Shown in pieces: positions 3,918-16,903 of a stretch of 34,056 nucleotides of DNA (the stretch's first letter is position 1; every line of letters starts with the position of its first letter). A program made the translations under genes and the position numbers. The notes below the pieces were generated by a model, which was not told the DNA's origin, did not search any database, and worked only from the letters and a program-made list of their open reading frames with translations. Origin of the DNA: a virus (lineage: Duplodnaviria; Caudoviricetes); the IMG/VR virus record IMGVR_UViG_3300042844_000089, positions 1 through 34,056 of that record; one strand, given 5' to 3'.

Positions 3918-4735
3918 TTGATTCCCATCTCTTTCCGCAGCCGGTCGGCTGCTTCCTGGGCCGATCTCGCCGCCCTGTCCAGTTCCCTGATGGTGCTCTC
4001 CGCCTGATCCTTCGTCTTTTCCAGTGCGGCCACCCCCCGGCTGAACTCCTTCAGCGCGTCCGCCGCACCCTCGGGTGACAGCCTCTCTTCCCAGGCGTAA
4101 TCAGACAGCTCGACACCGAGGGCCGCCTCCAGCCGGTCCATCAGCTCCAGCCGCCGCCGGTCCTTCTCGCTGAAGATGCCACGCTGGCGCCGGGTCTGCT
4201 GCTCCTGCTCGTAGAACTTCGCACGCAGTGCACTTTCCTGCTTCCGGAGAGCCTTCGTGCGCGTTGTCTCGGTATTCGTCAGCAGGGTCCGGAGCAGGGC
4301 GGCCGTGATGACGATGTCCCTCTCTTCGGGTTTCTGGAGCACCTTGAAACGGCGCCCCCGGCCGCCTGGCATCATCAGACCCCAACCCTTGGGCAGTTCA
4401 CCCTCCTGCACGATTCCGGCGTGAGGTACCACCAGCCAGAACATGTTGCAGTGCGGCCACCAAGCCTCGGCCTTCTTGGGGTTCTTCAGTTCCACGAGCC
4501 AGTCAGCCCGGCTGACCTTCAGCTCGCAGACCTCGATCGTCCCACCGCCCCGCGACGACCACAGGCCAACATGTACCGCATCCGCCCGGCGCCCGGAGTG
4601 ATCGGGTGCGGTGACCTCCGTCAGATAGATGGCACCGGCACCGGCCAGACTGAGCTGATCCTTTTCGGCGATGAAATGCAGGTTCAGCAATTCATCCAGC
4701 TCTTCCGTTGTCATGTCGCCATTCGGCGTGGCCAT
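3914..4735 (-). CDS. MmcB-like PD-(D/E)XK nuclease with coiled-coil tail
   Basis: EV...RRADAV...ELKVSRADW...K motif arrangement. Confidence 0.7.
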   Translation of the reverse strand: MATPNGDMTTEELDELLNLHFIAEKDQLSLAGAGAIYLTEVTAPDHSGRRADAVHVGLWSSRGGGTIEVCELKVSRADWLVELKNPKKAEAWWPHCNMFWLVVPHAGIVQEGELPKGWGLMMPGGRGRRFKVLQKPEERDIVITAALLRTLLTNTETTRTKALRKQESALRAKFYEQEQQTRRQRGIFSEKDRRRLELMDRLEAALGVELSDYAWEERLSPEGAADALKEFSRGVAALEKTKDQAESTIRELDRAARSAQEAADRLRKEMGIK

Positions 4736-4749
4736 GGCATTCCTTTCCG

Positions 4750-5577
4750 TCAGGAGGCCGAAGCCATTTTCTTGTTGTAGTAGCCGAGTGCCGCATTCAG
4801 GCCGTCGACCGTCACACCCAGCCGCTTGGCCGCACCCTTGCGGTCGTAGCCCTGCTCCTGAGTCAGTTCCCGGTAGTCCTCAGCGATCCGAATGTACTTG
4901 GGGGTGTTCAGGACCGGCTTGCAGTCGGGGTCGTCGATGTCGTCCCACGCCTCGGTGGGCAGCCACCCTTCGCGTTCTGCATGTTTCATCGTCCGCGACA
5001 CGGCAACGAGCTTGCTTCCCGTGTCGAGCGGATTCACGTCCCAGAGCTTGTCATGCAAAAGGGCGATCACTCGTACGGTTGACAGTTGAATGCGCTGCTG
5101 AGTGCCAGCCCGGATGAGGTTGATCGTCAAACGCGCCACGCCGCTCTCGTTCGACAGGACGGGTGCAGAGAAGCCCTGGACCGCAAGGGCTTGAAGCCTG
5201 CGCCGGGCGCCCGTGGCGTCGGCCCATCCACCCCTGGATCCCGGCCTGCTCTCGTGCGGCATGGGGACTCCGAGAATTGCGTCCGAATTGACCCGGAGCA
5301 TGGTCGGGAGATCCCCGCGAAGAAGTTTACGGACCTGCGAACCCGACACCCCTGATCGTTCGGCGATATCGCTGGATGACAGACTCGCCCGAACCAGCTC
5401 AACGGCATACGCATAGGCTTCGTCACTCGGAGCACGCGCCGGTCCATCCTCCTTCATCGCACGATACTTCTCCCGGTCACTCCGCCTGCGCGCCTCTCTG
5501 CACTCTTCGCGTGTGCATCCATACCGCAGGCATGACGCCATACCATGGCGTACTTGAGAGTTTTTTGGCCTACTCAC
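4750..5577 (-). CDS. Multi-HTH DNA-binding protein with N-terminal Cys/His motif
   Basis: HG..CLRYGCTREEC motif, three HTH-like segments, ARRRLQALAVQG motif familiar from actinophage proteins. Confidence 0.7.
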   Translation of the reverse strand: MSRPKNSQVRHGMASCLRYGCTREECREARRRSDREKYRAMKEDGPARAPSDEAYAYAVELVRASLSSSDIAERSGVSGSQVRKLLRGDLPTMLRVNSDAILGVPMPHESRPGSRGGWADATGARRRLQALAVQGFSAPVLSNESGVARLTINLIRAGTQQRIQLSTVRVIALLHDKLWDVNPLDTGSKLVAVSRTMKHAEREGWLPTEAWDDIDDPDCKPVLNTPKYIRIAEDYRELTQEQGYDRKGAAKRLGVTVDGLNAALGYYNKKMASAS

Positions 5578-5595: not shown

Positions 5596-6108
5596 TCAGC
5601 CGTAATACGACTGGCGCATATCCTCGTAGTACGCTTCTTCTTCTTCCTGGCGCTCTCGGTCGAAGTCCGCCTCGGTGCAGCCCGGCAGTTCACAGGGCCA
5701 CGGCTGGACTTTCCGTTCGTCGGGATAGCAGGCCTTGCACCACCGGTGGTCCTCGCACCGGTGACCCGGCTCGTCAGGCATGTCGCACGGCGGAGTCGGG
5801 AGCTGGCAGGTGTGCTCGGCGGGCACCGTCTCGACGATCTTCAGTCCGTGGCGGCAGTACATCCCCCGGTCGGGGGGCCTCACCTTGTCGAGGGGGCGCC
5901 AGTACCGCTCACCCGCGACTGTCCCCAGGCGCACGCTGGCGTCGGTACGCTCCTTCACCTCGCCGGTGATCTCCACCTCGTCCAAGGCGGTGACCATCGC
6001 ACCGATCCAGGGCCAGTCGCACCCCGGGGCCGCGCACGCGTCACGACCCCCCTCATGCGCGATCAGTGAATCGTCCGGACCGTTGACGTAGTGCTTGTGG
6101 TTGAACAT
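5596..6108 (-). CDS. Cys-rich hypothetical protein
   Basis: ORF with AAGGA RBS and multiple Cys/His clusters. Confidence 0.7.
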   Translation of the reverse strand: MFNHKHYVNGPDDSLIAHEGGRDACAAPGCDWPWIGAMVTALDEVEITGEVKERTDASVRLGTVAGERYWRPLDKVRPPDRGMYCRHGLKIVETVPAEHTCQLPTPPCDMPDEPGHRCEDHRWCKACYPDERKVQPWPCELPGCTEADFDRERQEEEEAYYEDMRQSYYG

Positions 6109-8929: not shown

Positions 8930-9496
8930 TCAGCGCTGGAAGTCGAGCTGACCCTCCGGCCAGACGATCCGGGCTATCCGGGTGGTGTTTTTGATCTGCT
9001 TCACGCAGCCCTGGCATGGTTCGTCGGTCACGTACATCGTCGCGCCGTCCAGCCGATACCGGGACTCCACGTCGGCAAGGGCATTCTGCTCGGCGTGGGA
9101 GGCCCCGCAGATCCCGGGCCCCGTGTCGTACGAGCTGCCCGGCTCGACCGAGTCCTCACAGCCACCCTCGGATGACCACTCCTTGCCGCATGCGCACTTG
9201 AAGAGGAAGTAGCAGTCGGAGCAGACCCAGTCGTACTCGGGATCGCCGCTGGGGCAGATCTGACAGGCCTTGCCGTACGCTTCGGCCAGCCGGTAGTGCC
9301 GACCCCGTGGGCATTCGCCCTTCAGGCAGCTCGGACCGCCCGGCCATGTGCCGTTGAAACCGGCCCCGATGATCCGGTGGTCGGCATCAAGGATGCACGC
9401 CCCGACCTGGCGCCTGGTGCAATCCCCGCGAAGAGAAACCGCCCTGGCTACGCCGAGCCCCCAGGAGTCCCAGTCGGGGCGTGCGAGTTCCTTCAC
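8930..9496 (-). CDS. dCMP deaminase family protein with Cys-rich insertion
   Basis: [20 protein letters not shown] and PCQGC zinc-deaminase motifs; GTG start overlaps the csp stop. Confidence 0.9.
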
Positions 9497-9696
9497 AAAA
9501 GCGTGACACCCTCGGCCTGCGGGCCCTTCTGGCCCTGCGTGACGGCGAAGTCGACCCGCTGTCCCTCTTCCAGGCTGCGGTAGCCCTGCGCGTTGATCGC
9601 GGAGTAGTGCACGAACACGTCGGGCCCCCCGCCGTCCTGGGCGATGAAGCCGAAGCCCTTCTCCGCGTTGAACCACTTCACGACGCCTTGAGCCAT
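9493..9696 (-). CDS. cspA: Cold-shock protein (CspA family)
   Basis: [18 protein letters not shown]...DVFVHYSAI: canonical RNP1/RNP2 cold-shock domain. Confidence 0.97.
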
Positions 9697-13768: not shown

Positions 13769-14164
13769 TCACCAGATGTCGTAAAACATCCGGCGGGACC
13801 TTTTCTCTGCTTTCTCGTAAAGCCTTTTCTCGAAGTCACCCTTCGCCCGGCGCGCAACGTCGAGCTTGCTCTTCACGTATCGCCGGTTGGCCCGTTCGTG
13901 CTTCTGGGCCCAGTACGTGCGGGTCGAACTCGGAGTCCAAGCCCCCGTGTAAGTCCACCAGCTTGCGGTACGCCGGACCTTCTGAGGCTGCGGTCGCCTA
14001 CCCTTCTCTTCAGCGTCACGTAGTTCCGCAGCGCTGTATCGAAGGTCATAGACAGTGTGCTCGCGAACGGGGACAGTGGGGCGTCCCCGCCAGTACATCC
14101 CGTACCCGTCAGGCCATTCCCGGGTATCGAACTTCCCTGGAATGTGGTGTGCAGTCTTGCCCAT
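13769..14164 (-). CDS. Basic Arg/Trp-rich hypothetical protein under uORF/hairpin control
   Basis: AGGAGG RBS; 131 aa. Confidence 0.8.
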   Translation of the reverse strand: MGKTAHHIPGKFDTREWPDGYGMYWRGRPTVPVREHTVYDLRYSAAELRDAEEKGRRPQPQKVRRTASWWTYTGAWTPSSTRTYWAQKHERANRRYVKSKLDVARRAKGDFEKRLYEKAEKRSRRMFYDIW

Positions 14165-14174
14165 CGGAATAGAT

Positions 14175-14228
14175 CCTCCTAGGGCCGCGAATTTCGCGGA
14201 CCTAAGTGAACCCGGTGAGGAAGTTCAT
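14175..14228 (-). promoter_or_regulatory. Leader uORF (MNFLTGFT*, 14228-14202) whose UAG lies in a hairpin covering the downstream RBS
   Basis: CTTAGG-T-CCGCGA-AAT-TCGCGG-C-CCTAGG-AGG; the uORF has its own AAGGGG RBS. Confidence 0.6.
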
Positions 14229-14274
14229 GAGCCCCTTACGCCTTCCCGTGAGGAAACGACGACATCCACTTACG

Positions 14275-14392
14275 TGAGGAGAGCAGGATTCGAACCTGCG
14301 ATCACCGCTGACCCGCGCCGTTGCGTACGCCTAGCGCGGAGACGGATCAACCGGATCGTGTCCGGCCCCATAGGCCACTCGGGCATCTCCCC
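14275..14392 (-). ncRNA. Atypical tRNA-like RNA (118 nt): 5-nt anticodon loop, 51-nt variable arm
   Basis: GGGGAGA/TCTCCTC acceptor, class-II-type D arm, CCGGA-CACGA-TCCGG, canonical GCAGG-TTCGAAT-CCTGC T arm. Confidence 0.8.
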
Positions 14393-14597: not shown

Positions 14598-14621
14598 CTT
14601 CTCCTCTTTCCGTTGTTTTTA

Positions 14622-14737
14622 GTGAGCCTCATCCCTAGCCCACGCGGCGCACCGGCCTTGTTCTGCTGCGCTTCTCAACCGATCCGGCCATCGGGCGGAG
14701 GGTGACCGAATTCCACTCCCCTCTATCGAGGTTCCAC
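14622..14737 (-). ncRNA. Candidate structured RNA in the tRNA-Gln trailer
   Basis: Closing helix CCTC/GAGG region plus CCGAT/ATCGG and GCGCA/TGCGC hairpins; no credible ORF. Confidence 0.35.
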
Positions 14738-14834: not shown

Positions 14835-14935
14835 CCTGGCAACCGAACGGCAAACACTCCGCGCACGGGCTGAATCCGCCTCTTCATTCCACCCGCCACA
14901 GTGGACTGACGTCAACAGCTTACCGTTCGGCCAGG
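14835..14935 (-). ncRNA. Candidate structured RNA with a long bulged closing stem
   Basis: CCTGG/CCAGG plus 13-bp CCGAACGGTAAGC/GTTTGCCGTTCGG; the G-U pairs form only on the minus strand. Confidence 0.55.
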
Positions 14936-15379: not shown

Positions 15380-15451
15380 TGCACCCGACTGGAATCGAAC
15401 CAGTGCATCCACTTTAGGAGAGTGGCGCTCTATCCCCTGAGCTACGAGTGC
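15380..15451 (-). tRNA. tRNA-Arg(CCU)
   Basis: GCACTCG/CGGGTGC acceptor, CCACT-CT CCT AA-AGTGG anticodon arm. Confidence 0.93.
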
Positions 15452-15452
15452 T

Positions 15453-15595
15453 TGGCCCCTCCACTGATAAGTTAGGCAGGAGGGCTCCCTTCAACACCTC
15501 CTGGAATGAGGTTGGCGTTGAACTCACTTGACTCACTCACCATCCGACGGATAGCCACCGAAGCGACGAACTCCATCAGACGTTTTCCAGGGCCA
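15453..15595 (-). ncRNA. Candidate multi-stem ncRNA with cUUCGg tetraloop and kissing loops, filling the Asp-Arg spacer
   Basis: TGGCCC/GGGCCA closing stem; TCTGATGGA/TCCGTCGGA; GTCGC-TTCG-GTGGC; CAGGAGG/CCTCCTG; TTCAACG/TGTTGAA loop-loop complementarity. Confidence 0.6.
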
Positions 15596-15596
15596 G

Positions 15597-15674
15597 CGCA
15601 CCTGACGGGATTTGAACCCGCGAAAATCTCCGCCTTGACAGGGCGGCGAGGACTCCAGACTCCTCCACAGGCGC
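15597..15674 (-). tRNA. tRNA-Asp(GUC)
   Basis: GCGCCTG/CAGGTGC acceptor, CCGCC-CT GTC AA-GGCGG anticodon arm, G73; 8-nt variable loop. Confidence 0.92.
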
Positions 15675-16487: not shown

Positions 16488-16660
16488 GAGAAAGTCACCC
16501 TGCTACCACCAGGCACCCGCACGCCTGGCAGGCGACTCTCTCTGTGCAGGTTGCCAAACCTGCGGTCCTCGACTAACTGCCGACGGCGCGGGAACTGCGG
16601 ATCCCGAGAGGATGGACGACGTCAGGGAAAGAGGATCTCTCACTGCACCTCTCGGGATCC
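16488..16660 (-). ncRNA. Candidate structured RNA(s): three consecutive hairpin domains
   Basis: 13-bp perfect GGATCCCGAGAGG stem; GCAGGTT/AACCTGC; 12-bp GAGAGAGTCGCC/GGTGACTTTCTC with G-U pairs enclosing CCAGGC/GCCTGG. Confidence 0.5.
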
Positions 16661-16662
16661 AG

Positions 16663-16796
16663 CTCTTTCGACAGGATTTGAACCTGCGTTAGCGCGGTGG
16701 GGCCACTCCATCCCTTGCGGGATGGTTCGAGGCTTTCACCTCTGGGGACTCAATCCCCTGCAACCGCGCCGTCCTAGGCCACTAGACGACGAAAGA
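16663..16796 (-). ncRNA. Atypical tRNA-like RNA (134 nt, Glu/Gln-type body) with a 64-nt three-hairpin domain in place of the anticodon loop
   Basis: TCTTTCG/CGAAAGA acceptor, GTCTAGTGGCCTAGGAC D arm, GCGCGGT/ACCGCGC stem, TAAC variable loop, GCAGG-TTCAAAT-CCTGT T arm. Confidence 0.85.
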
Positions 16797-16806
16797 GTCT
16801 TGCAAG

Positions 16807-16903
16807 AAGGTGTGGCCGGATTCGATACCGGCACTGAGTCGCCTTTATCCAGCGATATATCTACCGCATATCAGCGAGACCTCTACTGTTGGGTTACACA
16901 CCT
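16807..16903 (-). ncRNA. Atypical tRNA-like RNA (97 nt) with expanded anticodon/variable region and 8-nt T loop
   Basis: AGGTGTG/CACACCT acceptor (extendable to 9 bp), TAACCCAACAGTAGAGGT D region, GCCGG-TATCGAAT-CCGGC T arm. Confidence 0.7.

Follow-up and report, generated by a model that had tools for sequence, protein, structure and literature searches.

A conserved RNA with predicted pseudoknots in the tRNA cluster of cluster BM Streptomyces phages

Locus and genomic setting

The window, that is, the whole stretch of 34,056 nucleotides of viral DNA analysed here, is a linear virus record that is ~18% complete. Its tRNA cluster matches that of the cluster BM Streptomyces phages Frankenweenie, Kela, Satis, Quantum, Kradal, EhyElimayoE and JustBecause, and, judged by sequence, the window comes from a Streptomyces phage that is Satis-like (cluster BM), of which it is a fragment. 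All nine tRNAs of the window are encoded on the minus strand. The space from the discriminator base of tRNA-Asp to position +1 of tRNA-Arg is occupied by an element of ~145 nt (Table 1), which a first-pass annotation had described as a tertiary-folded non-coding RNA of no known class. Every stem quoted in that annotation occurs in the sequence, and all of them are minus-strand sequence, that is, they lie on the tRNA strand.

The element begins directly after the discriminator base of tRNA-Asp in 14 of 14 homologs. In 12 of these, 5 nt lie between the end of its last helix and the next tRNA, and in the remaining two 6 and 22 nt, a spacing that persists though the next tRNA is tRNA-Arg in the window and tRNA-Phe elsewhere. 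Across eight BM clusters, none of the 82 tRNAs encodes CCA and all 82 are followed by a C, while CUGG stands directly 3' of 18 of the 74 non-Asp tRNAs. The other tRNAs of these clusters are separated by very short spacers and carry no comparable trailer. No reading frame is conserved in the 14 homologs, which measure 146–153 nt and whose stops differ by frame, and neither a sigma-70-type promoter nor a terminator was found on the minus strand.

Table 1. Coordinates of the element, its predicted parts and other genes in the window. Pairing is given in cells (pair x homolog) over 14 homologs.
Feature	Position	Strand	Remarks
Phage cold-shock protein	9493–9696	-	PF00313, E 6e-31
131-aa protein, very basic, Trp-rich	13769–14164	-	Lies at the end of the tRNA cluster; 76–84% identical across BM loci
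tRNA-Arg(CCU)	15380–15451	-	Downstream of the element; replaced by tRNA-Phe in all 13 homologs besides the window
Whole predicted ncRNA, ~145 nt	15452–15596	-	14 unique homologs; covariance model matches; ends inferred from tRNA boundaries
3' strand of 3' H-type pseudoknot	15457–15462	-	Followed by 5 nt, then the next tRNA
P2, 3' strand, RCY core	15469–15472	-	1–2 nt after P4
P4, GGG/CCY, 3 bp	15474–15489	-	41/42 cells, no two-sided change
Long helix, 3' strand GGUGUUGAA	15490–15498	-	Column counts, 14 homologs
P1, 3' strand YUCCRGR	15500–15506	-	The next base, A15499, is invariant and unpaired
Invariant AAC linker	15511–15513	-	14 homologs
Long helix, 5' strand UUCAACGCC	15514–15522	-	Loop 1 of the first-pass annotation; pairs with 15490–15498
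P3, 5' strand GAG, invariant	15523–15525	-	Pairs with CUY 15508–15510
P2, 5' strand, RGY core	15526–15529	-	Pairs with 15469–15472
Purine-rich linker	15530–15540	-	Invariant G, AG, AG and C
Long hairpin (window: 11 + 5 bp)	15541–15582	-	Variable apical loop, UUCG here
P1 pseudoknot, 5' strand YYYGGAR	15585–15591	-	96/98 cells paired, 2/7 pairs with two-sided change
Invariant 5' leader CUGGC	15592–15596	-	First C likely C74 of the tRNA
tRNA-Asp(GUC)	15597–15674	-	Directly upstream of the element in 14/14 homologs; without encoded CCA

Homologs and range

Blastn with the window as query recovered the element in four phage records, and the Frankenweenie copy as query added three more; four of these seven records were retrieved for comparison. 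Full-length blastn matches are restricted to BM phages. Pattern scans yielded 9 loci in IMG/VR, of which 6 are true, and 115 loci in metagenomes, of which 10 are true and 105 are due to chance; another scan gave 83 loci with 7 true ones, each on an already known contig. When the neighbouring gene for the 131-aa protein served as probe, the element was present at 8 of 8 loci. From 19 extracted copies, 14 unique ones were kept, the other true loci being repeats on the same contig or copies with identical scores. The homologs are 57–72% identical to the window in the hand alignment of 14 rows, which split into two clades of five and nine. A further ~30 BM relatives came to light as proteins only.

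A covariance model found exactly one match per record in 6 of 6 BM records, and none in seven other tRNA-rich actinophages or in two other viral contigs. A GTDB pattern scan returned 50 loci, none of them true by the covariance model. The model also gave no match in three actinobacterial genomes or in 151 genomes of the genus Streptomyces, both weak tests, in which scoring covered 150 and 20, respectively, of ~3,000 candidates in each genome. No place in a plasmid search covers more than 25% of the element, and further homolog searches brought no new full-length copy. To date the element is known from a single phage cluster, and its general impact is limited accordingly. Rfam gives no match to it, either at gathering score or at E<=10, in the window or at seven homolog loci.

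Predicted fold of the element

Pairing was counted column by column in the hand alignment of the 14 homologs, one cell being one pair in one homolog. In the window, the model consists of 48 canonical pairs. Within P1, the stems of the long hairpin and P4, 95% of 336 cells are paired, compared to 40–53% in slid registers, and 12 of 24 pairs show two-sided change. The strands of P1 lie ~85 nt apart and are held together through C-G/U-A and G-C/A-U exchanges. The leader may be engaged as well, as its UGGC can pair with GYCA at 15532–15529 (four of four pairs in five homologs, three of four in the other nine).

The long hairpin contains the 9-bp stem and the GUCGC/GUGGC extension of the first-pass annotation, and both are borne out by the homologs: 117/126 cells are paired in the outer stem, with two-sided change in seven of nine pairs, and 67/70 in the inner stem, with two-sided change in three of five, or 10 of 14 pairs in all. 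The internal loop between them, GUYC/UA (15571–15568 and 15553–15552), is near-invariant. The UUCG tetraloop is confined to the window, as the apical loops of the homologs comprise 4–8 nt and vary in sequence.

Further downstream, the GUGAG/CUCAU stem (58/70 cells) reduces to a conserved GAG/CUY core, P3, which is paired in 40/42 cells with one-sided change only; the remainder of the stem is not conserved. Inside P3 starts the long helix, whose two ends are paired throughout (UYC/GRA 42/42, with U-A/C-G exchange; GCC/GGY 42/42) and whose middle is mismatched in many homologs. The first-pass annotation had seen in this pairing a potential kiss between the loops of two hairpins. The pairing is conserved at both ends, but it forms a 9-bp helix inside a pseudoknot and not a contact between hairpins, because the strands of the supposed second hairpin serve other, better conserved helices. 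One of the remaining elements is P4, whose loop contains the 5' strand of the 3' H-type pseudoknot (15479–15484); in 13 of 14 homologs this pseudoknot comprises 6 bp, in the remaining one 5 bp, with U-A/G-U exchange.

P2 is an RGY/RCY pairing that is Watson-Crick in 42/42 cells and includes two covarying pairs, while slid registers reach 0–18/42. A 3-bp helix with two covarying pairs of this kind also arises in 134 of 500 column shuffles, and P2 was found post hoc and registered by hand; we therefore regard it, from the alignment, as only moderately supported.

Two further stems of the first-pass annotation turned out to be specific to the window. The closing stem UGGCCC/GGGCCA is paired in 52/84 cells (62%) with no two-sided change in six pairs, and the CAGGAGG/CCUCCUG hairpin in 41/98 cells (42%) with none in seven. 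As a whole, that annotation was right about the kind of object and partly wrong about its fold.

An unbiased helix scan found 10 covarying helices that are fully compatible, where the null gives 3.3 on average; a count as high was reached in 5 of 500 shuffles; five of the ten belong to the adopted model and five are alternatives left out of it. As the 14 rows form two clades, several of the covariations are single events. RNAalifold recovered the long hairpin, UYC/GRA and P4, and missed the pseudoknots. It also proposed a pairing between the tRNA end and RGYG, which was not adopted as it uses bases of the acceptor stem. Nested-fold stability is unusual in the window only: its minus strand folds at -58 kcal/mol with a z score of -2.8, 2 of 200 shuffles being as good, and in the comparison across homologs it gives a z score of -3.4, while the other 13 homologs give z scores of -1.1 to +1.1. 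A plus-strand RNA was rejected, its fold having a z score of +0.7.

The covariation in the homologs, together with the conservation and the lack of an Rfam match at E<=10, agrees with a tertiary-folded RNA outside the known classes, and we are highly confident that the element is a real structured RNA. The alignment comprises 57 invariant positions, 22 of which are unpaired in the model. The predicted fold is that of a compact RNA with three pseudoknots, a kind that is, to our knowledge, rarely predicted.

A proposed stable RNA released from the tRNA cluster

We postulate that the element is a stable RNA of ~145 nt, freed by tRNA processing and locked at its ends, that acts in trans on a protein, as its ligand or decoy, a reading to which we give an even chance. 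The element would be co-transcribed with the tRNA cluster and released by host enzymes, through 3' maturation of tRNA-Asp on one side and an RNase P cut at the next tRNA on the other. Resistance to nucleases would then come from P1, close to the 5' end, and from the H-type knot, at the 3' end. The conserved unpaired bases, namely the GUYC/UA loop, AG..AG and AAC, may provide a binding surface or tertiary contacts. Action in trans would proceed by protein binding, and the partner is the least supported step of the proposal; candidates are a host protein of anti-phage defence or of translation, or the basic 131-aa phage protein.

The exact filling of the space between the tRNAs, despite the change of the next tRNA from Phe to Arg, supports a stable RNA, as does the presence of a second covarying non-tRNA RNA in the cluster. 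Since none of the 82 tRNAs encodes CCA and trailers are absent elsewhere, host enzymes presumably mature them, and the other BM tRNAs need no ribozyme. Against this stands the strict tie to the tRNA's 3' end, which fits a processing ribozyme too. The element is intact even at a locus (L021) where the anticodon arm of tRNA-Asp is replaced by an insert of ~400 nt; this insert may be recent, because the element beside it is identical to that of JustBecause. The insert (~4705–5115 of that locus) contains an open reading frame that, by eye, may resemble a PD-(D/E)XK nuclease.

One soil RNA run contains exact contigs of this phage across both the tRNA cluster and coding regions. One of these contigs comprises tRNA-Asp and 14 nt of the element (15582–15595), and contigs of this kind cannot show RNA ends. 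Among the RNA pieces listed, none spans the rest of the element, which is evidence neither way.

Small non-tRNA RNAs in a phage tRNA cluster have a precedent in RNAC and RNAD of phage T4 (PMC3014915, in excerpt), and the element is likewise a non-tRNA RNA gene inside a tRNA region. Blastn found no homology with RNAC or RNAD; the likeness is one of location.

Possible self-cleavage and the HDV-like and glmS folds

As the main alternative, and as the first-pass annotation had also considered, the element could instead be a self-cleaving ribozyme that carries a new active site on a double-pseudoknot scaffold of the HDV/glmS type, which we consider unlikely. Cleavage, given the same standing, would fall just 5' of P1, at most 5 nt from the tRNA-Asp discriminator, and would free the tRNA and leave an RNA with a 5'-OH; in all 14 homologs P1 starts 5 nt past the discriminator, and the cut itself is hypothetical. 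Theta ribozymes cut at most 5 nt from the 3' ends of phage tRNAs (PMC10879173, in excerpt).

The modelled strand order (P1a, hairpin, P2a, P3a, loop, P3b, P1b, P1.1b, P4, P2b) is HDV-like, with the long helix taking the place of P1.1. Within this order, support is good for P1 and the long helix, whereas P2, P3 and P4 have 3 bp each and are weaker, P2 alone lying within chance (134/500). The 7 bp of P1 (96/98 cells) exceed the minimum of at least 6 bp for HDV-like ribozymes, P3 has 3 bp, and the long hairpin would be an insert in J1/2; structured inserts at this place speed HDV-like ribozymes (PMC4908430, in excerpt). A further likeness is that P1 follows, at 5 nt, the discriminator of a phage tRNA whose gene encodes no CCA. 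The invariant unpaired GGC, AAC and A15499 would sit near the base of P1, and an invariant C, paired in the modelled P4, would lie 4 nt before P2b if P4 frays.

Several features that define the class are missing. HDV-like ribozymes have a G1 in a G-U wobble at the cleavage site (PMC8495972, in excerpt), whereas position 1 of P1 is U in 13 homologs, C in one and never G, and the first pair is U-G in 12, C-G in one and U-A in one. P1.1 comprises one or two pairs in the class (PMC4908430, in excerpt), compared to 9–10 nt per strand in its equivalent here. The catalytic C is the first base of J4/2 (PMC10879173, in excerpt), while J4/2 of the element has 1–2 nt (A or UG). L3 is longer, at 11–13 nt, and the 3' pseudoknot is an addition. 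A relaxed HDV descriptor, run without a positive control, matched 0 of 14 homologs, and the Rfam models HDV-F-prausnitzii and glmS found nothing at E<=10. Neither a CCA-adding enzyme nor RtcB was found in 5 of 5 BM genomes. We dropped the invariant 5' CUGG as a ribozyme signature, since a C follows all 82 tRNAs and CUGG follows 18 of the 74 non-Asp tRNAs.

Theta ribozymes are gut phage RNAs of ~56 nt with a minimal HDV-like fold that lacks P4, in contrast to the 145 nt of the soil actinophage element, which has P4 and a further pseudoknot (PMC10879173, in excerpt). With glmS, the element shares a core double pseudoknot whose first strand is at the 5' end and is followed by a hairpin, as well as a further pseudoknot (P3/P3.1 in glmS) 3' of the core (PMC11602151 and PMC8495972, in excerpt). 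Unlike glmS, it has no G1, shows an HDV-type P2 in place of the P4 strut and is flanked by tRNAs, not located upstream of glmS or any gene; RF00234 gave no match at E<=10 on the element, with the controls detected. Cleavage depends on Mg2+ in HDV-like ribozymes and on GlcN6P in glmS. As defining HDV features fail and RF00234 does not match, the element is filed in neither class.

It is doubtful, but conceivable from the model, that the element represents a new self-cleaving class, with a nested pseudoknot in HDV order, a P1.1 extended over one complete turn of helix, and a third pseudoknot. The putative active site, no less doubtful, would comprise the invariant GGC, AAC and bulged A and would cut tRNA-Asp from its precursor. 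A hammerhead core is absent from the 14 homologs. Resemblances to Twister, SAM-I, cobalamin, IGR-IRES and k-turn structures were rejected as not conserved across homologs.

Remaining explanations

Pseudoknots at both ends, the fixed abutment to tRNA-Asp and the fixed 5-nt gap to the next tRNA would suit an element that acts in cis within the pre-tRNA, where it would fold on itself, prevent tRNA misfolding and block exonucleases or set the RNase P leader before it is degraded. We regard this as improbable: 57 invariant positions, 22 of them unpaired, exceed the needs of an insulator, and the other tRNAs of the cluster manage with very short spacers. Readings other than a stable RNA, self-cleavage or a role purely in cis share only a small part of the probability even when taken together.

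One of these, a Y RNA-like partner of a phage Ro60 protein, is highly improbable. BM phages do encode Ro60, a TROVE protein being present in 5 of 5 BM genomes tested, and Ro60 pull-downs have recovered RNAs missed by bioinformatics (PMC4201824, in excerpt). The element has neither the 5' Ro motif nor the tRNA-like T and D arms of YrlA (PMC4201824, in excerpt): GNCGAAN0-1G is absent near the 5' end, with internal matches in 2 of 14 homologs, the T-arm motif is absent in 14 of 14, and RF02553 does not match. Moreover, the ro gene of Satis (85275–86888) lies ~39 kb from the element (125868–126018), against the 4 kb expected of a Y RNA, and a separate YrlA-like RNA stands just upstream of that gene. 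This unannotated YrlA-like Y RNA, beside a Ro-like gene and upstream of gene 136 (positions 5979–6087 of our locus L300, minus strand), scores 43 bits (E 1.3e-7), below the gathering score of 69.

Conservation at the DNA level or by neutrality, as a remnant or a binding site without a functional RNA, would fit the narrow range of one phage cluster. We give it very little weight, as compensatory changes, long-range ones included, occur at 57–72% identity, and G-U/G-C/A-U exchanges preserve pairing on the tRNA strand only.

A conformational switch, as the first-pass annotation had suggested, formed by a closed multiloop and two kissing hairpins, can scarcely be upheld, for its alternative stems exist in this phage only, where they match the conserved ones in strength (duplex energies of -10.8 and -11.2 kcal/mol, compared to -9.6 and -10.3 kcal/mol) and are used by the minimum free energy fold of the window, while across 14 homologs the closing stem and second hairpin are poorly paired without two-sided change, and a downstream gene to regulate is absent.

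Novelty and implications

The element is apparently a conserved, undescribed pseudoknotted RNA. We found no description of it in a literature search that left subscription journals mostly aside. The genome announcement of Satis and JustBecause mentions tRNAs only (PMC6687918), as does the excerpt of the Frankenweenie announcement (PMC10652959). A virus-wide screen lists three IMG/VR candidates of 76, 50 and 42 nt with Streptomyces hosts (PMC10690425), which may overlap part of the element.

Since Satis and JustBecause are cultured phages whose host is a laboratory strain, tests of both main readings would take only days. If the element cleaves itself, it would add a ribozyme class or measure how far the HDV scaffold can be rebuilt, and a new class would form a bridge between the folds of HDV and glmS. 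Should it prove to be a stable RNA, it would reopen the old question of what small non-tRNA RNAs such as T4 RNAC and RNAD do in phage tRNA clusters. The tRNA clusters of BM phages appear to hold several such small RNAs.

Other RNAs and genes

A second conserved non-tRNA RNA of ~100 nt is predicted at ~14835–14932 (minus strand). It has a long terminal stem, ends in GCCA in most copies and follows tRNA-Phe in relatives; 17 of its 33 predicted pairs covary among eight sequences, and Rfam gave no match. On this comparative evidence, the cluster carries at least one more conserved, covarying non-tRNA RNA.

Several tRNA-like features were also observed on the minus strand. At 14275–14392, a tRNA-like sequence with a long insert was missed by ARAGORN and scores 39.4 bits with the Rfam tRNA model. 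By eye, a Glu-like tRNA body in which several hairpins replace the anticodon loop is seen at ~16664–16797, and a tRNA-like element with an unusual arm at ~16808–16877. An exact contig of the RNA run spans 16585–16891. In Satis and Kela, tRNA-like ends surround an insert of 100–160 nt just upstream of tRNA-Asp (~5693–5930 of locus L001 and ~2640–2810 of locus L004), a split feature that is absent from the window. Spacer segments at ~16500–16635, ~14617–14707 and ~14165–14235 are 68–92% conserved in BM relatives and include a hairpin just before the start of the gene for the 131-aa protein.

The 131-aa protein belongs to no Pfam or PHROG family and has distant homologs in Streptomyces; it is possibly an RNA-binding protein. 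For the phage cold-shock gene, the RNA depth of 826 in its bin likely derives from host csp transcripts.
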